Assembly: GCA_047973205.1 (NCBI GenBank) | Contig: JBKEBO010000016.1 | Coordinates: 2,973-66,972, forward strand | Source of the DNA: Alphaproteobacteria bacterium | GTDB lineage: Bacteria; Pseudomonadota; Alphaproteobacteria; JBKEAR01 | DNA length: 64,000 bases | Reading direction: 5' to 3' | Shown: piece after piece, positions 5,417-54,140 of the stretch | Layout of the letters: each line of letters starts with the position of its first letter | Numbering within the stretch: position 1 is the stretch's first letter | Program-made: the position numbers and the translations under genes | The notes under the pieces: generated by a model | Seen by the model: only the letters and a program-made list of their open reading frames with translations | Database searches by the model: none | What the model was told of the DNA's origin: nothing

Positions 5417-6883
5417 CTATGTATTTATACCTAATGCAATATCAACATCTTTCATATTTCCCTCACTCTCGACCAAAATAACAAGCGTATCATGCTCCTC
5501 TATAATTGTAATCCCCTTGGGACGGATATATTGGCCGTCACGCTTAATCATTGTAATAAAAGCTGTTTTAGGAAAATCAAGGTCAACAATTCGTTGCCCC
5601 ACCGCAGGACACTGAGGCAAAATCGGTACAAGTTTCATTTTAGACATCGGTAAATCAAGGGCATCACGCTCATCTTCCTGTGGCTCTTTTGTCTCTTCAG
5701 GTAAAGCAATATCGAGCCATTTTGCCACTAAAGATAGGGTTGTTCCTTGCAAAAGAACAGAGGTTACTGAGATGAAAAATACGATATTAAACATCATACT
5801 AGCCTGACTAATCCCTGCTAAAAGTGGATAGGTCGCAAACACAATCGGTACTGCTCCACGTAAGCCAACCCACGATATATAAATTCGCCTTTTTATAGGC
5901 ATCCGAAAAAATGATAGGCTTAAAAAAACTGCAAATGGTCGAGCCAAAAAAATAAGAGCCATTGAGATAAGCAGTCCAATAGCGGCAACCTCCATAATTT
6001 CGCTAGGAAAAACAAGGAGTCCCAAGGTTAAAAAGAGGATAATCTGCATCAGCCATGCCAAGCCATCAAACATCTTAAGGATTGTCTGTTTATGAATTAA
6101 ATTCTGGTTTCCAAGATAAACGGCACAAATATAAATAGCTAAAAATCCATTGCCTCCAACAAAATCTGTGGCTGAAAAAGTAAGGAACATCAAAGCGATA
6201 ACTAAAATCGGATAAAGCCCCTCAAAGTCCAGATTAATTCTATTGATAAAAAATGTACTCATATAACCGAACGCAAAACCTGCAATTGCACCAATAATCA
6301 TCTGCTGGAGGAATATGGGCACCATGGAGACTAAACCTAAATCTTGATGTATTACAAGGTTTAAGAAGGCAATGGTAAGCACATAAGCCATGGGATCGTT
6401 ACTCCCACTCTCAAACTCTAAGGTTGAGCGTAGGTTGGATTTTAGGGCCAAATTCTTTGAACGTAGAATAGAGAAAACCGCCGCCGCATCGGTTGATGAG
6501 ACAATCGAGCCTAAAAGCAGGCTTTCATAAATAGTAAAATTTGTAACTAACCAAATGAATGTACCAAGGAATAAAGCCGTGAGAAGCACCCCGATAGTCG
6601 ATAAGCTAAGTCCTTCTTTTAAAATAGGTTTTACTCGCTCCCAGTCGGTGTCTAGCCCACCAGAAAACATTATAAAGTTAAAGGATACCACACCGATAAA
6701 TCGTGCGAGCTTAGGGTCATCAAAATGAATACCACCAATCCCCTCAGAGCCTGCAAGCATACCGATTACCAAAAAGAGCAATAAGGTTGGTACCCCATAT
6801 TTAAAGGCTCTTTTGGCCAAGATGATACTCACCAAAAGCATCAAGGAGCCAACCAGTAATATATTTTCGATTGTAATATTCAT
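5417..6883 (-). CDS. K+/H+ (cation:proton) antiporter, CPA1 NhaP2/CvrA-like, with C-terminal TrkA_C domain
   Basis: 488 aa with about 12 hydrophobic segments. It carries the Na_H exchanger signature (SIVSSTDAAAVFSIL, FESGSNDPMAY) and a soluble C-terminal domain (AVGQRIVDLDFP...TLVILVE). Confidence 0.8.
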   Translation of the reverse strand: MNITIENILLVGSLMLLVSIILAKRAFKYGVPTLLLFLVIGMLAGSEGIGGIHFDDPKLARFIGVVSFNFIMFSGGLDTDWERVKPILKEGLSLSTIGVLLTALFLGTFIWLVTNFTIYESLLLGSIVSSTDAAAVFSILRSKNLALKSNLRSTLEFESGSNDPMAYVLTIAFLNLVIHQDLGLVSMVPIFLQQMIIGAIAGFAFGYMSTFFINRINLDFEGLYPILVIALMFLTFSATDFVGGNGFLAIYICAVYLGNQNLIHKQTILKMFDGLAWLMQIILFLTLGLLVFPSEIMEVAAIGLLISMALIFLARPFAVFLSLSFFRMPIKRRIYISWVGLRGAVPIVFATYPLLAGISQASMMFNIVFFISVTSVLLQGTTLSLVAKWLDIALPEETKEPQEDERDALDLPMSKMKLVPILPQCPAVGQRIVDLDFPKTAFITMIKRDGQYIRPKGITIIEEHDTLVILVESEGNMKDVDIALGINT

Positions 6884-6957
6884 ATTGGCCCTAACCCTTT
6901 ATTCTCAATCATCTTTTTAGGTTATATGATGATGCTATCAAAGTCACTATTTTTCAA

Positions 6958-6990
6958 CAAAAAAACCACCCAATATTGGGTGGCTTTTCA
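6958..6990 (-). terminator. Rho-independent terminator of rpsD
   Basis: CCACCCA (6966-6972), loop ATAT, TGGGTGG (6977-6983). On the minus strand the hairpin is followed by a run of 8 T. Confidence 0.75.
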
Positions 6991-7014
6991 ATTTTGTTAT
7001 TTGCTTTAAGGCTC

Positions 7015-7632
7015 TTAACGCGAGTAGAATTCCACCACAAGGTTGGGTTCCATCTGTACTGGGTAAGGTACATCGGCTAAGCCTGGAATACTGATATATT
7101 TACCGCTACGCTTATCTAAATCCACATCCATATAATCAGGAACATCACGCTCTGGCGATTGTACGGCGGCGATAACCATCGGAATTTGACGAGATTTTTC
7201 ACGCACTTCAACCACATCACCTGCCTTAACACGGTATGAGGGGATGTTCACTTTTTGACCATTCACAAAAATATGGCCATGGTTGATAAACTGGCGTGAT
7301 GCAAATACAGTTGGTACGAATTTCATACGGTAAACCACTGCATCTAAACGGGTTTCTAAAATACCAATCAGATTTTCGGATGTATCACCTGGGCGACGAG
7401 CGGCCTCGGCATAATAACGACGAAACTGCTTTTCTGTAATGTTGCCGTAATAGCCTTTTAGCTTCTGCTTTGCAGCAAGCTGAATACCATAATCTGAGAG
7501 TTTACCACGGCGGTTTTGGCCATGTTGACCTGGCCCGTAAGGGCGTGTATTTACTGGAGATTTTGCACGACCCCAAAGGTTAACACCAAAGCGGCGGTCG
7601 ATTTTGTATTTGGTTTGAATACGTCTTGTCAT
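7015..7632 (-). CDS. rpsD: 30S ribosomal protein S4
   Basis: 205 aa. The sequence [22 protein letters not shown]...[10 protein letters not shown]...S4 domain...NLVVEFYSR is unmistakable uS4. Confidence 0.97.
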
Positions 7633-7828
7633 AAAATTTTAATCCTTGCACATGTTTAGCTTTTGGAGATTCTCTCCATTGGCCGTCAGTTGTTATTTTT
7701 GTTCCAATTATCCGTTATAAAACAGAGGGATATACAATTACTCCATGGAGTTTTGCAATCCACTTTCTCGGACGTAGCGGTGATTATCATTAAAAATGGC
7801 CAATATGTCAATATCTTATTACTTTTAT

Positions 7829-8030
7829 GACCATAAAAATCCATTTTTATCCATTTTTGTCCATTTTTATCCGTAAAATATCCTCTTTAAACCAATTTAA
7901 GCCAAAAAAATCCTCCCATATACAACCAGCATCCTCATACTTTTAAGGGCAAGAAGTGTCATTTAAGGGATATTTTTTGTATTTTTATGGATAAAAATGG
8001 ACGAAAACGGGCAAATTTTGGCTAAATATG
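7829..8030. repeat. Phased-repeat inverted element, copy A (10-bp TCCATTTTTAT units)
   Basis: CC(A/G)T occurs at 7831, 7841, 7851, 7861 and 7871, with degenerate units continuing to 7911, in an exact 10-bp register. The inverse array has ATGG, ATGG and ACGG at 7987, 7997 and 8007. The architecture matches 32833-33115 and 49243-49458. Confidence 0.8.
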
Positions 8031-8660
8031 CCTTAAAATGAACTGTATACTCCCCTCTAATACCTCAGGAGCAATCATGTGTCCCATGCCTGTGACCATA
8101 TGATTTTCAGCTTCAATAGAAACTCTTTTAAGTTGAGAAACGGCTTGACCAAGAGCATCAGGAGTAATCGCCTCATCAGCCGTTCCATGCCATAATTGCA
8201 CAGGAGGATGTTGCTTAACTCCCTCATCGGCTATGTAAAGACCCGACCAGCCCACAATTGCTGCAGGAGCTTCACTTAAGCGTAATCCTGTATAAAGAGA
8301 CATCATACAACCCTGAGAAAATCCTGCAATAACAAGCTTTTGAGCGGGCATATCATATTTTTTAAGCTGCTCTTCAATATAGGATTTTAATATAGGATAA
8401 GCCGATTGAGCCCCTTGTAATAAGGCTTCAGGCGTACGTTCTAAAAGGCTAAACCACTGGCGATAACCCTCACCCATATCAATCTCGCATATTTGTGGAG
8501 CATCTGGAGCGAGAATAATAATATCTTCCCCCAAACGAGATTTAAAAAAATGTTTTAATCCAAAGAGATCCGCACCATTTGCTCCATAACCATGAAGCAG
8601 AATTAACATCATTTTTGCTTGGCCTTCAGGCTTATATTCATGGCTTATCAGTTCAGTCAT
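8022..8660 (-). CDS. Phospholipase/carboxylesterase family alpha/beta hydrolase
   Basis: 212 aa with LLHGYGANGADL, the nucleophile elbow GFSQG, and a late HGTADEAI...GHM segment. This is the typical YpfH/Est family layout. Confidence 0.8.
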   Translation of the reverse strand: MTELISHEYKPEGQAKMMLILLHGYGANGADLFGLKHFFKSRLGEDIIILAPDAPQICEIDMGEGYRQWFSLLERTPEALLQGAQSAYPILKSYIEEQLKKYDMPAQKLVIAGFSQGCMMSLYTGLRLSEAPAAIVGWSGLYIADEGVKQHPPVQLWHGTADEAITPDALGQAVSQLKRVSIEAENHMVTGMGHMIAPEVLEGSIQFILRHI

Positions 8661-8704
8661 TTTTTCGATTCCTTGTTGATATATAATATGTTAAGCTAGC
8701 TTTT

Positions 8705-9634
8705 ATGCATATTAAAGTCAATACTCGCTTTGCTCCCTCACCCACAGGTCATCTCCATTTAGGCCATGCTTATTCGGCTTTTTTTGCCTATGAGCTTGCA
8801 AATGCCACTAGGGGAAATTTTATCTTACGTATAGAAGATATTGATATTACACGGAAAAAAGATAATCTTATTCAGGATATTTATACAGATTTACATTGGC
8901 TCGGCTTAAAATGGCAACAGCCTGTAAGGTTACAATCAAAATATTTTGAAGATTACACGCAACAGCTTGATAAACTAAAGAAATTAGGTGTTATCTATCC
9001 TTGTTATTGCAGTCGAAAACAGATTGCTCAAAAGCGAGATACCATGTTGCATGCCCCCCATGGCGTTCGTGGAAATATCTATCCACAAACATGTAAAAAC
9101 CGCAATATTGATGAAATCAAAGACCTTGAAAATCAAGGAATTATTCCTGCTTATCGCCTTGATTTTGAAAAAAGCCTCTCTCTATTATCCGAACCTCTTC
9201 CAAATTTTTGGAATGACTTATTGATGGGCAAACAACCCCTTGATTTATCAACAATTGGTGATGTTATTTTGGCTCGTCGTGATATTCAAACAAGCTATCA
9301 TATGGCAGTAACTTATGATGATAATCTGCAAGATATATCTCTGATTACTCGTGGGGTTGACCTTATGGAACAAACACCATTACATATGCTATTACAAAGA
9401 CTTATAGGCTATAACACCCCCTATTATGCCCATCATGATTTGCTTTGTGATAAAGCGGGCAATCGTTTGGCTAAAAGCCATGGAGCAATAAGTCTTAAAC
9501 AGCTCCGCAAGCAAGGCATAAGCCCAGAGCAAATCCGCAAGCAAATGGGCATTGGCAGCCCTGAATGGTATAAGAAGATTGAGCAAATTGTAGGCATGCT
9601 TCACCTTCCAACAAGCTTGAGGGAGCGGTATTAA
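8705..9634 (+). CDS. gluQ: tRNA glutamyl-Q(34) synthetase (GluQRS)
   Basis: 309 aa truncated GluRS catalytic domain lacking an anticodon-binding domain. It has RFAPSPTGHLHLGHAYSA (HIGH motif) and LAKSHG (KMSKS-like). Confidence 0.85.
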   Translation: MHIKVNTRFAPSPTGHLHLGHAYSAFFAYELANATRGNFILRIEDIDITRKKDNLIQDIYTDLHWLGLKWQQPVRLQSKYFEDYTQQLDKLKKLGVIYPCYCSRKQIAQKRDTMLHAPHGVRGNIYPQTCKNRNIDEIKDLENQGIIPAYRLDFEKSLSLLSEPLPNFWNDLLMGKQPLDLSTIGDVILARRDIQTSYHMAVTYDDNLQDISLITRGVDLMEQTPLHMLLQRLIGYNTPYYAHHDLLCDKAGNRLAKSHGAISLKQLRKQGISPEQIRKQMGIGSPEWYKKIEQIVGMLHLPTSLRERY

Positions 9635-10384: not shown

Positions 10385-10418
10385 TTAAAATATAAAGATA
10401 TTTAAAATATAAAGATAT
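10385..10418. repeat. Perfect 2 x 17 bp tandem repeat in the 5' region of the OMP gene
   Basis: TTAAAATATAAAGATAT occurs at 10385-10401 and again at 10402-10418, directly upstream (minus sense) of the GGAG Shine-Dalgarno. Confidence 0.9.
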
Positions 10419-10470
10419 TAAGGATAGTCTAGCAAGCAAATATAAAAGAATGGTTAACTTTTTCAGGTAA

Positions 10471-12239: not shown

Positions 12240-13240
12240 TATTGTTGCGTCTTTTTATAGTTCATAACTGCATCATATAATTTATGATTTTCGGAGGTTT
12301 TTATCCGCCATTCATCTTGATAGGCTTGTAGAATGATTTCTGCTTTTTCTAAGTCTCGGGGTGAAAGCATTACAAAATGGTGGCCTCCTTCGGCTTTCAT
12401 TTTTGCATAAGCCTCCTGCGACTGCTTAAGTGTCTCTTTACCTATAAGCTCCGTAAACCAACCTTGAGAAACCTGCTCCAATGCTTGTTGGGATTTTTTT
12501 GAAAGCTGAGAAAACTTCTTTTTTGTCATAGGAAAAACAATTGCATTTCCACCCAAATAAAGATTTACCACATGATATTTGGTTACATCATTCATCTTAA
12601 AATTATAAACATTTCCCATATCCATTAAAGCCCCATCAATAACACCGCGATGGAGATTTTCTGCAATTTGAGGTGCTGTAATATTACTGACAGGAATGCC
12701 CCCAAGTCGACGAATGATTTCTGATTGTGCTGCACCCACAACACGGAATTTTAGACCTCTAATATCATCAAGCTTTTCTATTTTTTTTGCCGAATGGATA
12801 ATATAAGGGCCAACCTCCTGATAACCAAGAACTTTAAACTTATCAAGCCCTTTAACGAGTCCTTGATCACCTAAATACTGAGCTATTTTAGCACCTTCTA
12901 ACTCGTTAGAGAATAGATAGGGAAGCTCTAAAACATCCAGCCCTCGCACTCGTCCTGGTGTATAAGGAGTAACAACTTCTGCAATATCCAGAACAGCTTT
13001 TTCGATTAAATCTAGCTGAATTTTACCCCCTGAGCCTAATATCCCCCCAGGATAGTGTTTAACCTTAAGTTGCCCATCAGAAAGCTCTGCAACTTTTTCG
13101 ATGAAAGTTGGAATAATCACACGATTAGTTACCGTGGTTGCAGGTAAAAAATCTCCAAATTTTAGTGTATTTTCCTTTGCATAAGATATTAATGAAAAAA
13201 GTAATAAAAAGCAAAATGTTATACATTTTTTTAGATACAC
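12239..13240 (-). CDS. dctP: TRAP transporter periplasmic solute-binding subunit DctP family
   Basis: 333 aa with a signal peptide (FCFLLLFSLISYA). It has DctP-like motifs and is the first gene of the dctPQM order. Confidence 0.8.
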   Translation of the reverse strand: MYLKKCITFCFLLLFSLISYAKENTLKFGDFLPATTVTNRVIIPTFIEKVAELSDGQLKVKHYPGGILGSGGKIQLDLIEKAVLDIAEVVTPYTPGRVRGLDVLELPYLFSNELEGAKIAQYLGDQGLVKGLDKFKVLGYQEVGPYIIHSAKKIEKLDDIRGLKFRVVGAAQSEIIRRLGGIPVSNITAPQIAENLHRGVIDGALMDMGNVYNFKMNDVTKYHVVNLYLGGNAIVFPMTKKKFSQLSKKSQQALEQVSQGWFTELIGKETLKQSQEAYAKMKAEGGHHFVMLSPRDLEKAEIILQAYQDEWRIKTSENHKLYDAVMNYKKTQQ

Positions 13241-13275
13241 AATATTGTCCTTTATATATAATTACTATATGAAAA

Positions 13276-13325
13276 CTTATATATTTGATGCTCCAATATA
13301 CTTATATATTTGATGCTCCAATATA
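13276..13325. repeat. Perfect 2 x 25 bp tandem repeat upstream of dctP
   Basis: CTTATATATTTGATGCTCCAATATA occurs at 13276-13300 and 13301-13325, 36-85 bp upstream of the dctP start (minus strand). Confidence 0.9.
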
Positions 13326-13408
13326 ATATACTTGCTGTATAAATCAAGTTTCTTTTTATATAGGAATAAACAGTCTTTTTTGCTTACAAACAAGGAAAAT
13401 CAAGCCAT

Positions 13409-13660
13409 TTATTCTGTCTCAAGATAGAGCTCTACCGCATGTAATCCTTGATTAAAAAATGGGCTTAGAATTTCATTAACCATACGCTGGCGATTAACTT
13501 TACTTAAGCCTTCAAATTTTTCACTTATAATATAGACTCTTAAGTGACTAGCCTCTTTAACATGATCGCCATGGCCTAAATGTTCGCCTGAAAAATCCAT
13601 GAGCTTAATTTCACCATTTTCAAATTTTTCTTGGAGTGCGTTATAGATATCTTTAATCAT
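13409..13660 (-). CDS. bolA: BolA family protein
   Basis: 83 aa. The run FSGEHLGHGDH...SHLRVYIISEKFEGLSKVNRQRMV...LHAV matches the BolA fold signature. Confidence 0.8.
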   Translation of the reverse strand: MIKDIYNALQEKFENGEIKLMDFSGEHLGHGDHVKEASHLRVYIISEKFEGLSKVNRQRMVNEILSPFFNQGLHAVELYLETE

Positions 13661-13803
13661 TTTTTTCCCTTTATGTTAAATTTTAGAGATTAATTATAAG
13701 GGTAAAAATAAAAAAATTCTATAACATACATGATGATTTTTAAAATATTTCATGTTAATATCACCATAAAGCTGTTGTAGATAGATTAAAAGTTGAACGA
13801 ATC

Positions 13804-14619
13804 TTGGATAAATTTGTTATACGCCTGATTAAAATTATTTTATGGTTTCGATATAGAATCTCTGTTTCTGGCCTAGATGAAATCAAACAAGATTCTCGCC
13901 CTATTTTATTTGTTGCCAATCATCCATCCTTAAGTGATCCTCTTATTGTTATTCAGCTTTTATGGCATAAGTTTCATCCTAAAGCTTTGGTGAGAGACTT
14001 ACAAATCAACCGTCCGATTATTGGGGCTTGCATCCGTAGTTTTGAGCCCATATCCATGCCTGATATGCGTAAAGATGCTAAAAAAAAGGCAAGCTGGGCT
14101 CGTCAGTCTATTGAACTTACTAAGGAAGCTCTTGGCGATGGCCATAATATTCTTATTTGGCCTGCAGGTAAGCTTAGCCGCGATGGTTACGACTACTTTA
14201 TTCAGCGAAGTTCAACCCATCAGGTTTTTAAAAGCCGTAGTGATTGCCGCATTGTTGCTTTACGTTCCACAGGCATATGGGGAAGTCGTTCGAGCTGGTA
14301 TAATGGTCCAGACACACCTATTTGGAAAATTGGACTTATGGGGCTAATATTTATTCCACTAAACTTATTTTTCTTTATGCCCAAAAGACACATACATTAT
14401 GAAGTTCAGGAACTTAAAGAGCTAGAAGGATTAGAGCGAACTGCATTTAATACCCGCTTGCAAAATTATTTTAATGCCAAACCTCAGCCTGCACAAATCA
14501 CACCGCTCATGTGGTGGCATAAGGTAAGGTTCTCCCCTGCAAAAACTCCAAAAACAGCCGAAGAACTCTTACAAAAAGAAGAAAAACAACCGCCTCAAAA
14601 ACAAAAAGGAATATCTTAA
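13804..14619 (+). CDS. Lysophospholipid/glycerolipid acyltransferase (PlsC family), paralog 1
   Basis: TTG start. HX4D catalytic motif (NHPSLSDP) and a later PAGKLSRDG block. It shares the same architecture and many conserved blocks with the next ORF. Confidence 0.7.
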   Translation: MDKFVIRLIKIILWFRYRISVSGLDEIKQDSRPILFVANHPSLSDPLIVIQLLWHKFHPKALVRDLQINRPIIGACIRSFEPISMPDMRKDAKKKASWARQSIELTKEALGDGHNILIWPAGKLSRDGYDYFIQRSSTHQVFKSRSDCRIVALRSTGIWGSRSSWYNGPDTPIWKIGLMGLIFIPLNLFFFMPKRHIHYEVQELKELEGLERTAFNTRLQNYFNAKPQPAQITPLMWWHKVRFSPAKTPKTAEELLQKEEKQPPQKQKGIS

Positions 14620-16578: not shown

Positions 16579-16665
16579 GCGGGCGTGGTGGAATTGGTAG
16601 ACACGCAAGACTTAAAATCTTGTTCCCGATTGGGAGTGCCGGTTCGATTCCGGCCGCCCGCACCA
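16579..16665 (+). tRNA. tRNA-Leu (anticodon UAA), CCA encoded
   Basis: Acceptor stem GCGGGCG/CGCCCGC. Anticodon stem-loop CAAGA-CTTAAAA-TCTTG. It has a long variable arm, a T-arm GGTTCGATTCC, and a 3' ACCA. Confidence 0.93.
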
Positions 16666-29834: not shown

Positions 29835-29984
29835 TTTTTGCGGCCACACCCCGCACCCGTTAGTCGCTTATGCTCCTTCAACCCTTTTTGCGGCCACACC
29901 CCGCACCCGTTAGTCGCTTATGCTCCTTCAACCCTTTTTGCGGCCACACCCCGCACCCGTTAGTCGCTTATGCTCCTTCAACCC
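29835..29984. repeat. Perfect 3 x 50 bp GC-rich tandem repeat
   Basis: TTTTTGCGGCCACACCCCGCACCCGTTAGTCGCTTATGCTCCTTCAACCC occurs at 29835-29884, 29885-29934 and 29935-29984, with no mismatches. Confidence 0.97.
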
Positions 29985-30109
29985 TTAAGCGGGAGAGTCA
30001 ATACTATAAAATAAGTCTTGTTGCTTTTTGATACAAAGTTTATTATTATTCTAAAAGATTTAGATAACAATATAGAATTATAATATATTCGTACAGGAGG
30101 AATACCTAA

Positions 30110-32832: not shown

Positions 32833-33115
32833 GCCCCTAGACTATTCTGATTAATATTTTATGCAAAATAAGTACTCCATATATATTTTTTAATACCCAA
32901 TTTTTACAAATTTTACCCATTTTAACCCATTTTTGACCATATTAGTCCATATTTATCCAATTTAAAGCATATTTTGCCAACTCATTTCATCAAGTTTCTT
33001 GCTTTCAACACCCTCACCATTTGCCATTATTTGGATTTTTATGGCCAATAAATGGATAAATATGGACTAATATGGACTAATATGGACAAAAATGGGCAAA
33101 GCCCCATTAATATTA
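32833..33115. repeat. Phased-repeat inverted element, copy B (best-preserved inverted repeat)
   Basis: Left arm has CCAT/CCAA at 32917, 32927, 32937, 32947, 32957... in an exact 10-bp register. Right arm has ATGG at 33052, 33062, 33072, 33082 and 33092. Left CCCATTTTTGACCATATTAGTCCATATTTATCCA matches the reverse complement of the right arm, apart from 2 mismatches and one 10-bp unit. Confidence 0.85.
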
Positions 33116-47413: not shown

Positions 47414-49216
47414 TTGGCACAAGCAGTAATCAGCTTAAATGATATTATGATTGATTTAGGAGATAAAAAGCTATTTTCTAACTTGAGTATCACCCTAAAT
47501 CAAGGGGAAAAATTAACCCTCTTAGGACGCAATGGAAGCGGAAAATCAACCCTACTTAAGATCATGGCTGGTCTTGTTGAGGTCGATGGTGGCGAAGTTT
47601 CTAAAAGTATTGATGCCGTTTTTAGCTATCTTCCACAAAATCCTGAAATAACCGATAAGAATCAAAGCATTTTAGATTATTGTATCCATGGCAATGCGGA
47701 GGCTTGGCGATGCCAAACCCTATTGCAAGAGCTTAATTTAGATGAAAACACACCCGTTGGAAATCTTTCTGGAGGAGAGTTTCGTAAGGCCGCTATGATA
47801 CGCTGCTTAGCCAAAGACAGTGATGTACTGCTCCTTGATGAGCCAACAAACCACTTAGATATCAGCACTATAGAATGGCTTGAGAGCAAGCTCAAAAGCT
47901 TTAAAGGAACAGTGATTGTTATTTCTCACGACCGCCGCTTTGCCGAAAATATCACCTCAGCTTGCCTATGGTTAGAGCGTGGCCAACTTCACCGTGTAGC
48001 CGCTCCTTTGGCCGAATTTAACGATTGGCAAAATGCCTTTTTTGAAAAAGAAGATACGGAGCGAGCCAAGCTTGATAAATATATTGCCGAAGAAACACGT
48101 TGGTCTCACCAAGGCATTACCGCACGCAGAAAGCGTAATCAGGGGCGGTTGCGGCGGTTATATACTCTAAGGGACGAACGCCGCAAAATGATTGAGCGTA
48201 CAGGCCAAGCCAAGCTTAAAATTAATGAGGCTCAAAAATCGGGCAAAGAGGTCATAAAGGCCGAAAATATAAGCTATATTTGGGATGATAACTTTGTGGC
48301 TGTTAAGGATTTTTCTATCCGCATTACCCGCAAGGAACGTATTGGCATTGTTGGCCCTAATGGCGTTGGGAAAACCACCTTTTTACGACTACTTACAGGC
48401 GAGCTTACCCCCACATCAGGAAGCATCAAATATGGCACACAAATTGAGCCTTTATGGATTGACCAAAGCCGCAGCCAACTCCCTTTAGATAAAAGCATTT
48501 GGGAGGTTTTGGCCCCCACATCGGACCATATTGTTATTGGTGGGCAAAGCCGTCACGTGGCTTCTTATGCGGAAGATTTTTTGTTTAGTTCTGCTCAGCT
48601 TCGCTCCCCTATACGCTCACTTTCTGGAGGTGAAAAAAATCGCCTTAGCCTTGCTCTATCTCTTATAAAGCCAAGCAATTTCATTATCTTAGATGAACCT
48701 ACTAATGATCTTGATATGGAAACATTAGAGCTTTTACAAGAGATACTCTCGGAGTTTGAAGGCACACTTCTTATTGTTTCTCATGATAGAGATTTTCTTG
48801 ATGGGCTTGTGGATAGCTGCTTATTTTTTGAGGGTGAAGGCCGCATAACCCAATATGCAGGTGGCTGGAGTGATGCCATAGCTCAAGGGGCTTCATTAAG
48901 TCCTAAAAATCAAGTAAAAAGCAAAGAAAAATCTTCAAAAACATCAATAAAAACAGAGGCTAAGCAACCCTCAACTAAGCTTTCTTATAAGCATAAATAT
49001 GCCTTAGAAAACCTCCCTCAAGAGATTGAAGCTTTGAGCCTTGAGATAACAAAGACGGAAGAAACATTGTCCGACAGTGACTTGTTCATGAAAAAACCCG
49101 AAGAATTCCAACAGCTTACAGAAAATCTTCACAAGCTACAAAGTGAACTCACCCAAAAAGAAGATGAACTTTTAGAGGCCGAAATTCTCCTAGAGGAAAT
49201 CAATGAGCAATCTTAA
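47414..49216 (+). CDS. ABC-F family ATPase (Uup-like, no transmembrane domain)
   Basis: Two ABC cassettes (GRNGSGKST / LSGGEFRK and GPNGVGKTT / LSGGEKNR) and a C-terminal coiled-coil tail. TTG start. Confidence 0.88.
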   Translation: MAQAVISLNDIMIDLGDKKLFSNLSITLNQGEKLTLLGRNGSGKSTLLKIMAGLVEVDGGEVSKSIDAVFSYLPQNPEITDKNQSILDYCIHGNAEAWRCQTLLQELNLDENTPVGNLSGGEFRKAAMIRCLAKDSDVLLLDEPTNHLDISTIEWLESKLKSFKGTVIVISHDRRFAENITSACLWLERGQLHRVAAPLAEFNDWQNAFFEKEDTERAKLDKYIAEETRWSHQGITARRKRNQGRLRRLYTLRDERRKMIERTGQAKLKINEAQKSGKEVIKAENISYIWDDNFVAVKDFSIRITRKERIGIVGPNGVGKTTFLRLLTGELTPTSGSIKYGTQIEPLWIDQSRSQLPLDKSIWEVLAPTSDHIVIGGQSRHVASYAEDFLFSSAQLRSPIRSLSGGEKNRLSLALSLIKPSNFIILDEPTNDLDMETLELLQEILSEFEGTLLIVSHDRDFLDGLVDSCLFFEGEGRITQYAGGWSDAIAQGASLSPKNQVKSKEKSSKTSIKTEAKQPSTKLSYKHKYALENLPQEIEALSLEITKTEETLSDSDLFMKKPEEFQQLTENLHKLQSELTQKEDELLEAEILLEEINEQS

Positions 49217-49242
49217 AAAGAAATATATATAGGAAAATATTC

Positions 49243-49458
49243 CACCCATATTTATCCATTTTTATCCGTATTTATCCACTTTAAGTCCATTTCTATCCAA
49301 ATTTAACCATTTTTTGGCAAGAATTGATAAATCAATTTGATTAAAAAATAAATTTTGATTAATTAAATTTTGCAAATTTTTGGCTATTTGTGGTTATAAA
49401 TAGCCTCAAGCTGGATAAATATGGACAAATTCGGACAAAATATGTTCATTTATGGCTA
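49243..49458. repeat. Phased-repeat inverted element, copy C
   Basis: Left arm: CCAT 49246, CCAT 49256, CCGT 49266, CCAC 49276, then CCAT 49287, CCAA 49297 and CCAT 49307. Right arm: CTGG 49411, ATGG 49421, TCGG 49431 and ATGG 49452. The arm ends on the TAG of the FkbM gene. Confidence 0.8.
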
Positions 49459-50286
49459 ATCAGATACCCTAAGAGAGAAGGATAAATTATTCCCTTCTCG
49501 CTCAAATGAAATATGCCGTCCATGGGATGGATGCTGAACAAAAATATCGCCATCTAATCTCTTGAAATCATCATAACCCAAAGATGTTAAAAAGTCTTTG
49601 GTTTTCTCAGCTTTTTCCTTATACCAATCACGCCCTTTCCAAAGCTCAAACATAATCGGTGGATAGTTATTTTTCTTTAATGTCTCTACCGCCCCTTTAA
49701 AGAATTCAAGCTCAAGCCCTTCAACATCTACCTTAATAAAGGCAACATTTTCAAAGAGTTCAAAGCTATCTAAAGTTTGCATCGATACTTTAAAAGGTGT
49801 GCTATCTTGAAGTTCAACATTATAAAGAACACCTGCTTCTTCATAGGCTTTCTTAAGATTTTCTCTAACGGACGGATCAACCGAAAAAGCTCCGATATGG
49901 CCACTTTTTGCAAAATCCATCTCTGGGATTTCTATGATTGAATTCTCCTCACCTAAAGCAATATTATGGGTATAGACATTATCAAGTTGGTTAATGAATA
50001 TATTTGCACAAAGCTGTTGAAAAACAATACGTTGAGGCTCAAAACTGAAAATTTTTCCTTTTCTACCCATCAAATGTTGAGCTATAGGAATGGTAAAACT
50101 GCCTAAATTTGCCCCTGCATCAATAACAATAGCTGCCTCTGTTTTATGGAGAAATGCTTGACAAATTTGATGTTCCACATTCCCCCAACGTCCCCTTTGC
50201 TTAATCGTATTTGAGAGTAAGTCCGAGCCATTTATTAATAGCCAAGTTGTTTCTTTTTCACGAATAATATCAACACGGGGTAACAC
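49456..50286 (-). CDS. FkbM-family SAM-dependent methyltransferase
   Basis: SAM motif I VIDAGANLGSFT and an FkbM-type core (FEPQ...IKVDVEGLE). 276 aa. Confidence 0.75.
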   Translation of the reverse strand: MLPRVDIIREKETTWLLINGSDLLSNTIKQRGRWGNVEHQICQAFLHKTEAAIVIDAGANLGSFTIPIAQHLMGRKGKIFSFEPQRIVFQQLCANIFINQLDNVYTHNIALGEENSIIEIPEMDFAKSGHIGAFSVDPSVRENLKKAYEEAGVLYNVELQDSTPFKVSMQTLDSFELFENVAFIKVDVEGLELEFFKGAVETLKKNNYPPIMFELWKGRDWYKEKAEKTKDFLTSLGYDDFKRLDGDIFVQHPSHGRHISFEREGNNLSFSLRVSD

Positions 50287-54019: not shown

Positions 54020-54140
54020 ACTGCGTGTGGGCATAATATTAATGGGGCTTTGCCCCCGCAGGCTCTCCACCCGATAGGATATAATACTGCGTGTGGGCAT
54101 AATATTAATGGGGCTTTGCCCCTATGCTTTATTCTGAAAA
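54020..54140. repeat. Mosaic intergenic repeat: 2 x 37 bp direct repeat, GC-rich module and Y module
   Basis: ACTGCGTGTGGGCATAATATTAATGGGGCTTTGCCCC occurs at 54020-54056 and 54086-54122. The 29-bp segment between them resembles the GC module at 5342-5365. CTATGCTTTATTCTGAAA (54122-54139) recurs at 29791-29808. Confidence 0.9.

Follow-up and report, generated by a model that had tools for sequence, protein, structure and literature searches.

Three copies of a repeat family, designated A, B and C, are present in the window, the 64,000-nucleotide stretch of DNA that was analysed here, and each is built from two inverted arrays of helically phased 10-bp units. The family is absent from orthologous sites in related species and is dispersed to different loci, and it probably represents a non-autonomous mobile element of the foldback or MITE-like type, the arms of which are arrays of putative transposase binding sites. 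At the level of description, its members are most likely small, non-coding insertion elements carried by one clade of uncultured alphaproteobacteria; we only infer that the arms bind protein, what type of enzyme is involved and how neighbouring genes might be affected. Mobility had not been considered in the preliminary description of this DNA and is now the best-supported reading. The window is alphaproteobacterial core chromosome (GcrA, RecA, AlaRS, aconitase, MutL and others), and no transposase or recombinase domain was found in it or in approximately 170 kb of loci from its relatives, nor was any parent insertion sequence (IS) sharing the ends of the family.

Segmentation of the arms into 32 units yielded the consensus T-R-T-C-C-A-T-W-T-T, in which the CC pair, the A after it and a purine two bases before it are nearly fixed. 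The units are spaced in steps of 10 bp, with a single 11-bp step in most arms located just inside an invariant 14-mer, GTCCATWTTTATCC / GGATAAAWATGGAC. This 14-mer is present in every arm except the left arm of copy C, which carries the one-mismatch variant GTCCATTTCTATCC. All copies possess the same inverted CCAT...ATGG arrangement, with two arms of approximately 70-100 bp around a variable centre, 4-8 decamers per arm and a total length of approximately 180-220 bp, and unit counts vary from copy to copy as well as between the two arms of a single copy. No element wholly contains an open reading frame (ORF) of 50 aa or more, and short spurious frames reach the left end.

The six arms (the left arms of A, B and C and the reverse complements of their right arms) align with an invariant CC pair in each unit, and an nhmmer profile built from this alignment recovers the same six arms with E values of 1e-14 to 1e-21 and nothing further below E 0.3 in the 64-kb window. 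A candidate half-copy at 1838-1890 was rejected, as it scored E 4.1 with the arm profile. Period-10 arrays were detected by TRF at all three sites, and a two-unit 20-mer, allowing up to 3 mismatches, occurs at 5 sites in the window against 0.11 expected from shuffled sequences. An exact-match search for at least three CCAT/ATGG motifs in 10-bp register returned only copies A and B (approximately 0.14 expected in shuffles), and copy C was detected by the mismatch-tolerant scan and TRF. Complementarity between the inverted arms amounts to 74-85% for copies A and B, and the scan that gave these values paired no long arms in copy C. In a Fourier analysis of 10-bp AA/TT periodicity, the top 15 of 6391 sliding windows by power all fall in A, B or C, and other AT-rich spacers thus do not possess such periodicity. 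Predicted intrinsic curvature, calculated with a wedge model, is extreme for the window at the elements and reaches its maximum in the left arm of copy A. The preliminary description had proposed an imperfect inverted repeat of curved DNA that recurs with the same architecture at three sites, and that would stand out in periodicity from shuffled controls and other AT-rich spacers; these points are borne out well above chance levels, the curvature by prediction. It had also failed to recognise the repeat as a described family. Rfam, searched over the whole window at the gathering threshold, matched only one tRNA (16579-16662), and blastn against a plasmid collection returned no match to the element. 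Perfect tandem repeats of other kinds are also present in the window, including a 50-bp GC-rich repeat in 3.0 copies (TRF score 304) at 29835-29986, in the spacer upstream of the aconitase gene, and duplications of 25 bp (13275-13325) and 17 bp (10385-10419).

Copy A occupies approximately 7841-8021 in the intergenic spacer between rpsD and a minus-strand gene for an Abhydrolase_2 esterase (8022-8660). Its left arm (7841-7915, + strand), delimited by the arm alignment, the profile and comparison with four element-free relatives, comprises eight TRTCCATWTT units, with CC at 7841, 7851, 7861, 7871, 7882, 7892, 7902 and 7912; the invariant GTCCATTTTTATCC lies within this arm at 7859-7872. The CC pairs that were originally listed at 7831, 7841, 7851, 7861 and 7871 are present, but the register is not exact over nine units as had been claimed, since the 11-bp step falls between the CC at 7871 and the CC at 7882. 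The inner left arm carries the motif AAGCCAAnnAAATCCTC (about 7899-7916) just left of the variable centre, which has no assigned strand and spans 7916-7955 in the alignments. In the right arm (7956-8021, + strand), ATGG units form the inverse array, which can be followed from about 7966 to 8021 and includes the invariant GGATAAAAATGGAC (7989-8002); the stretch 7981-8030 reads as previously described. The inner array is real, but the outermost units once assigned to the two arms are not part of the element: alignment with the relatives shows that 8022-8030 (esterase coding) and 7829-7836 (rpsD-upstream) are native, and the resemblance of these flanks to units looks to be partly due to chance. 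The left terminus lies at approximately 7837-7841 according to the alignment with the four relatives without the element. The right terminus lies at 8021 (TTTTGG followed by CTA), or at approximately 8011 (AAAACGG) if the last unit is native, and 8012-8021 is possibly native too. In one relative, L090, 33 extra nucleotides follow the esterase stop codon, the first 15 of which match the outermost unit of the copy A right arm. This match would be explained either by a native outermost unit, with copy A ending near 8011, or by the footprint of an old copy in L090. The 33-nt sequence, GCCAAAATTATTTGCATATTATTGCTTAAAATAG (L090 1670-1702), which no other relative has after the esterase stop, looks like three decamer units in decay and may represent such a footprint. 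The native TAG stop codon of the esterase gene (8022-8024, - strand) directly abuts copy A. On the other side, the promoter of the monocistronic rpsD gene (7783-7811, - strand; TTGACA-17-GATAAT, 11/12 matches) is conserved in relatives, and its -35 box lies approximately 25-30 bp from the left end of the element.

Copy B (about 32877-33095, + strand) lies between the convergent genes for aconitase (+) and an orphan 281-aa protein (-). Its arms are the most regular of the family, measuring 51 nt with 84% complementarity, and contain the invariants GTCCATATTTATCC (32945-32958) and GGATAAATATGGAC (33054-33067). The right limit of copy B is marked by a 22-mer of another small hairpin repeat, GGGCAAAGCCCCATTAATATTA (33094-33115, + strand), which is identical to 54034-54055 and 54100-54121 on the opposite strand. 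This 22-mer is the core of a 37-mer, ACTGCGTGTGGGCATAATATTAATGGGGCTTTGCCCC, that occurs twice, 66 bp apart, in 54020-54122 of the window and whose core matches at 22/22 positions, reversed, at the copy B right edge. A degenerate piece (GCCCC...ATTAATATTTTATGC) is present left of copy B at 32834-32866, and this second small repeat family looks REP-like, with a GGGGC-TTT-GCCCC hairpin. Copy C (about 49242-49455, + strand) lies between the stop codons of convergent genes for an ABC-F protein on its left (+, stop 49214-49216) and an FkbM methyltransferase on its right (49456-50286, -, stop 49456-49458), and terminates on the right with TTTATGG followed by CTA.

A terminal pattern of 5'-CCAT(W)4...(W)4NGG-3' can be fitted to copy A (7841...8021), copy B (32877...33095), copy C (49242 or 49246...49455) and also to an element of a related genome, L171. 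The final GG directly precedes the CTA stop codon in A and C, and in L171 a stop codon lies 5 nt further on. No sharp terminal sequence can be defined, the element ends being uncertain by up to one unit. No target-site duplication longer than a chance AAAT was found at the A and C junctions, where boundaries are uncertain by up to 10 bp and the flanks of the relatives have diverged. According to the preliminary description, the right arm meets the stop codon of a minus-strand gene in all three copies; this is the case for A and C, but in B the other small repeat intervenes. Given that relatives have no element at the same sites, insertion into spacers of very small size near gene ends accounts better for the contact.

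At least four related species were recognised from RpsD homologues at 89-92% identity. The esterase-rpsD spacer measures 389 bp in the window and 193-227 bp in four related species with the same flanking genes, and alignment shows that the esterase 3' end and the rpsD promoter are conserved in the four relatives and that copy A is simply missing. At the copy C site, a relative (P5, loci L304/L305) with the same ABC-F and FkbM genes has 7 nt between the two stop codons against 239 in the window, and its FkbM protein is 55% identical over the last 110 residues. Two other relatives (L171 and L172) do not possess FkbM at the ABC-F locus. In L171 a 150-bp element fills the gap between ABC-F and pepF, and in L172, from a third species, only a hairpin terminator is present there, so that the element replaces a terminator and this pair offers no clean empty site. 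The FkbM gene itself is present between ABC-F and pepF in the window and in P5 (L304 5275-5631) and absent in two other relatives, which probably reflects its ancestral presence at this locus and loss from some lineages rather than a recent acquisition. No clean empty-site comparison is available for copy B either, because at the position of copy B, between aconitase and an orphan 279-aa gene, relative L092 has an extra 490-aa ORF (12809-14281) without a Pfam match.

The element in L171 shares the centre motif AAGCCAAnnAAATCCTC with copy A and with an element at L008, which belongs to the same metagenome-assembled genome (MAG) as L171, and does not share it with copy C. The subfamily defined by this motif (subfamily 1), comprising copy A and two copies in one related species, is thus found at three different loci in two species. 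The occurrence of one subfamily at three unrelated loci, along with the empty sites, suggests a dispersed insertion element rather than a fixed host site. In an aconitase tree, the species of the window is first-branching in its clade (support 90/89), and for copy A alone one ancestral loss is therefore as parsimonious as one gain; the case for mobility comes from A, C and the subfamily distribution taken together. The L008 locus, in MAG VLC_093, is syntenic with 39.4-44 kb of the window (ubiD, ubiA) on one side only, and a perfect parS-type palindrome, TGTTTCACGTGAAACA (1785-1800), lies approximately 60 bp from its subfamily-1 element (1830-2030).

Wider searches recovered family members only in the related MAG VLC_093 (L008 and L050), among 77 loci in genome contigs that match the two-unit pattern, a number close to chance. 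In viral contigs, the 14-mer gave 73 chance matches, none of which fit the arm profile, and in JGI metagenomes the two-arm signature, a self-complementary pattern, gave three matches, all by chance. In total, three copies were seen in the 64-kb window and two or three in one relative. The copies are old and diverged, and an arm identity of approximately 60% gives no sign of recent activity. Several short contigs from public runs match the copy A arm with different flanks (compared with window 6500-9500), which suggests further copies in the sample. Contigs of the only public runs that carry this DNA (X1-X4), among which no RNA run was found, end at GATC, break at the element and have chimeric tails, as in a Hi-C/DpnII library. 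Decamer arrays of the ATGGATAAAT/GTCCAT type are also found in a Methanosarcinales archaeon, Lyngbya, a GC-rich Reyranella and an Omnitrophota MAG (L019 2500-2570, L045 4418-4480, L047 6716-6770 and L017 4460-4510), the array of L017 lying directly upstream of two 58-aa HTH_17 (excisionase-like) genes. No transposase adjoins the arrays of these four hosts, which were treated as unrelated.

A mobile element of this kind would work as follows. The conserved CCAT cores would all face the same side of the helix, and bending of the DNA would come from the phased T-tracts. Each decamer would offer a site to a transposase or recombinase acting in trans, which would bind cooperatively along each arm and pair both arms, and the element would have moved into short AT-rich spacers near gene 3' ends without obvious target duplication. 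The pattern of divergence agrees with units that serve as a binding motif. Arm similarity is 0.67-0.77 within an element and 0.54-0.73 between elements, and arms of one element are thus barely more alike than arms of different elements, which argues that complementarity as such is not maintained. The phased CCAT core and the A/T spacer, by comparison, persist through approximately 40% divergence, which points to a putative repeated protein-binding site, and not an RNA or DNA hairpin, as the selected feature.

These observations bear directly on the alternative that the element acts as RNA or single-stranded DNA, being a bidirectional terminator, an insulator or a 3'-end stabiliser like REP/BIME or ERIC, with the phasing as a by-product. 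All three copies do fold as one long hairpin and better than shuffled sequences (z scores of -3.2, -7.0 and -4.8), and their positions would suit such a role: A follows the esterase stop codon, B, C and the L171 element lie between convergent genes, and the last of these occupies the position of the classic hairpin terminator in L172. However, no intrinsic-terminator pattern was detected in any of the three copies, the complementarity of partner arms is no greater than the shared unit consensus gives, and the part that is conserved, the phased CCAT core, is dispensable for a hairpin, so a hairpin function is considered unlikely to account for the family. It is less likely still that a host protein binds the arms to control replication or organise the chromosome, the arms being either low-affinity DnaA sites of the datA, DARS or oriC-like kind or sites for a nucleoid-associated protein. 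In Escherichia coli oriC, low-affinity DnaA sites have a similar layout, with helically phased arrays in two opposite orientations. Strong curvature, as predicted for the elements, would be suited to proteins of this type, and the unit core TTATCCAT matches 7/9 positions of the DnaA box TTATCCACA. The link to the DnaA box drawn in the preliminary description nevertheless proved weak. Only 2 of the 31 window sites within one mismatch of TTATCCACA fall in elements (one in A, one in C and none in B) and neither is perfect, approximately 40% of units have G, not A, at box position 3, and every unit reads TT in place of the conserved CA at box positions 8-9. Moreover, the sites are not conserved in position, given that relatives are without A and C and that the subfamily sits at unrelated loci.

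Two further explanations are each highly improbable. According to one, the elements are remnants of integrative elements whose genes have been lost, and the decamers are arm-type or excisionase sites of a tyrosine-integrase att site comparable to lambda attP. The elements do resemble such a site in their length (approximately 200-240 bp), in having a core flanked by two arms of phased 10-bp repeats, and in their bending, and some decamer arrays in viral contigs adjoin integrase genes (L186, L195). The viral arrays are non-specific, however, since three GTCCAT motifs at 10-bp spacing occur at 28 loci against 37 and 65 for permuted control hexamers, and the genes that adjoin them are heterogeneous. 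These counts also give no support to a widespread system of GTCCAT decamers across phyla. No integrase, tRNA target or flanking core direct repeats were found at any copy, and site-specific integration would not scatter copies across unrelated spacers. According to the other, the arrays have neither mobility nor function and arose by expansion of decamers through replication slippage in AT-rich spacers, their likeness being convergent. The variation of unit number among arms and copies would be expected from slippage, and similar (ATGGATAAAT)n arrays exist in unrelated organisms, including an archaeon. Against this, the copies share the 14-mer, an 11-bp step at the same place, an inner AATTTAACC/TTTTGGC segment and, within the subfamily, the centre motif, and the inverted CCAT...ATGG arrangement is common to all copies. 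Shared non-repetitive features of this sort are not expected from convergence and disfavour slippage.

If the reading as a mobile element is correct, the family would represent a bacterial mobile element consisting almost entirely of a phased 10-bp binding site, arrayed in two inverted arms. Such a build is known from the eukaryotic Foldback transposons and, in part, from the ends of IS607, and no description of it as a bacterial MITE was found in the literature. Such an element would also provide a compact natural substrate on which to study the polymerisation of a transposase on phased sites. Effects on neighbouring genes are conceivable, as copy A places strongly curved DNA, by prediction, upstream of the rpsD -35 box and a potential long hairpin at the 3' end of the esterase mRNA, and both are core genes. 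The bent end of IS5 activates glpFK (PMC2753651), and the element may, by analogy, alter transcription in the same way. In practical terms, elements of this kind break short-read assemblies of these metagenome-derived genomes, and they could be used as presence/absence markers among closely related uncultured lineages.

Among known systems, REP/BIME sequences, which are associated with RAYT transposases, are likewise dispersed extragenic palindromic repeats at gene 3' ends. They differ in being GC-rich palindromes of 20-40 nt with a conserved GTAG-type head and no decamer phasing, whereas the arms described here are AT-rich; the REP-like hairpin repeat in the window that abuts copy B, GGGGCTTTGCCCC, is separate from the family. 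Clusters of DnaA boxes (oriC arrays, datA, DARS) share two opposite, helically phased arrays of 9-mer-like units with a TTATCCA core, but the units of the family are without the CACA end, are not enriched in near-consensus boxes and are not conserved in position. The likeness to bacterial MITEs such as Correia, ERIC, RUP and Nezha is broader. These are also small, non-coding and intergenic, possess inverted arms and fold as hairpins, and they are multicopy, present or absent at orthologous sites and devoid of a transposase of their own. In contrast to their short unique terminal repeats, the arms of the family are 70-100 bp tandem 10-bp arrays with a variable number of units, the centres are unrelated between subfamilies, and no target duplication or parent IS was identified. 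The Rfam and plasmid searches returned no sequence similarity to known MITEs.

Foldback elements, some members of which are MITE-like, characteristically have inverted arms composed of tandem sub-repeats whose number varies (PMC3169594). Drosophila FB, Galileo, Tm1 and FARE resemble the family in their tandem sub-repeat arms, in differences in repeat number between arms and copies and in their variable centres. They are, however, eukaryotic and much longer, and they depend on MULE- or P-type transposases that generate target duplications of 7-9 bp. The host of the family is bacterial, and neither a transposase of this type nor a target duplication was found, so that the resemblance is an architectural analogy only.

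The closest mechanistic precedent in prokaryotes is the IS607 serine transposase, the architecture fitting a group to which the family may belong. TnpA of IS607, a serine recombinase that carries a MerR-like winged helix at its N terminus, binds 9-bp motifs approximately 10 bp apart over 60-80 bp cooperatively, forming a filament that captures the other end (PMC6188088). The ends of IS607 carry short, helically phased direct motifs that are inverted between the two ends, with GG termini and no target duplication (PMC6188088; PMC4058570). In the family, too, both ends possess phased direct motifs in inverted orientation, each with a G/C-containing core and an A/T-rich spacer. The arms of the family have 4-8 units compared with about 2-5 in IS607, and no tnpA or tnpB gene was seen in the window. 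GG termini can be drawn, but this is trivial, since every unit contains GG; with regard to the GG-target rule of IS607, the empty sites in L087 and L304 are without GG and that in L080 has GGG. No report of MITE derivatives of IS607 was found in the literature. A tentative and somewhat doubtful extension of the mobile-element reading is that the family represents the first miniature non-autonomous derivatives to be described of a filament-forming transposase system, either an IS607-type serine enzyme or another winged-helix enzyme, and thereby a prokaryotic counterpart of Foldback elements. The phased-decamer arms would then act, as the motif arrays of IS607 do, as a platform for a cooperative nucleoprotein filament that pairs the two ends.
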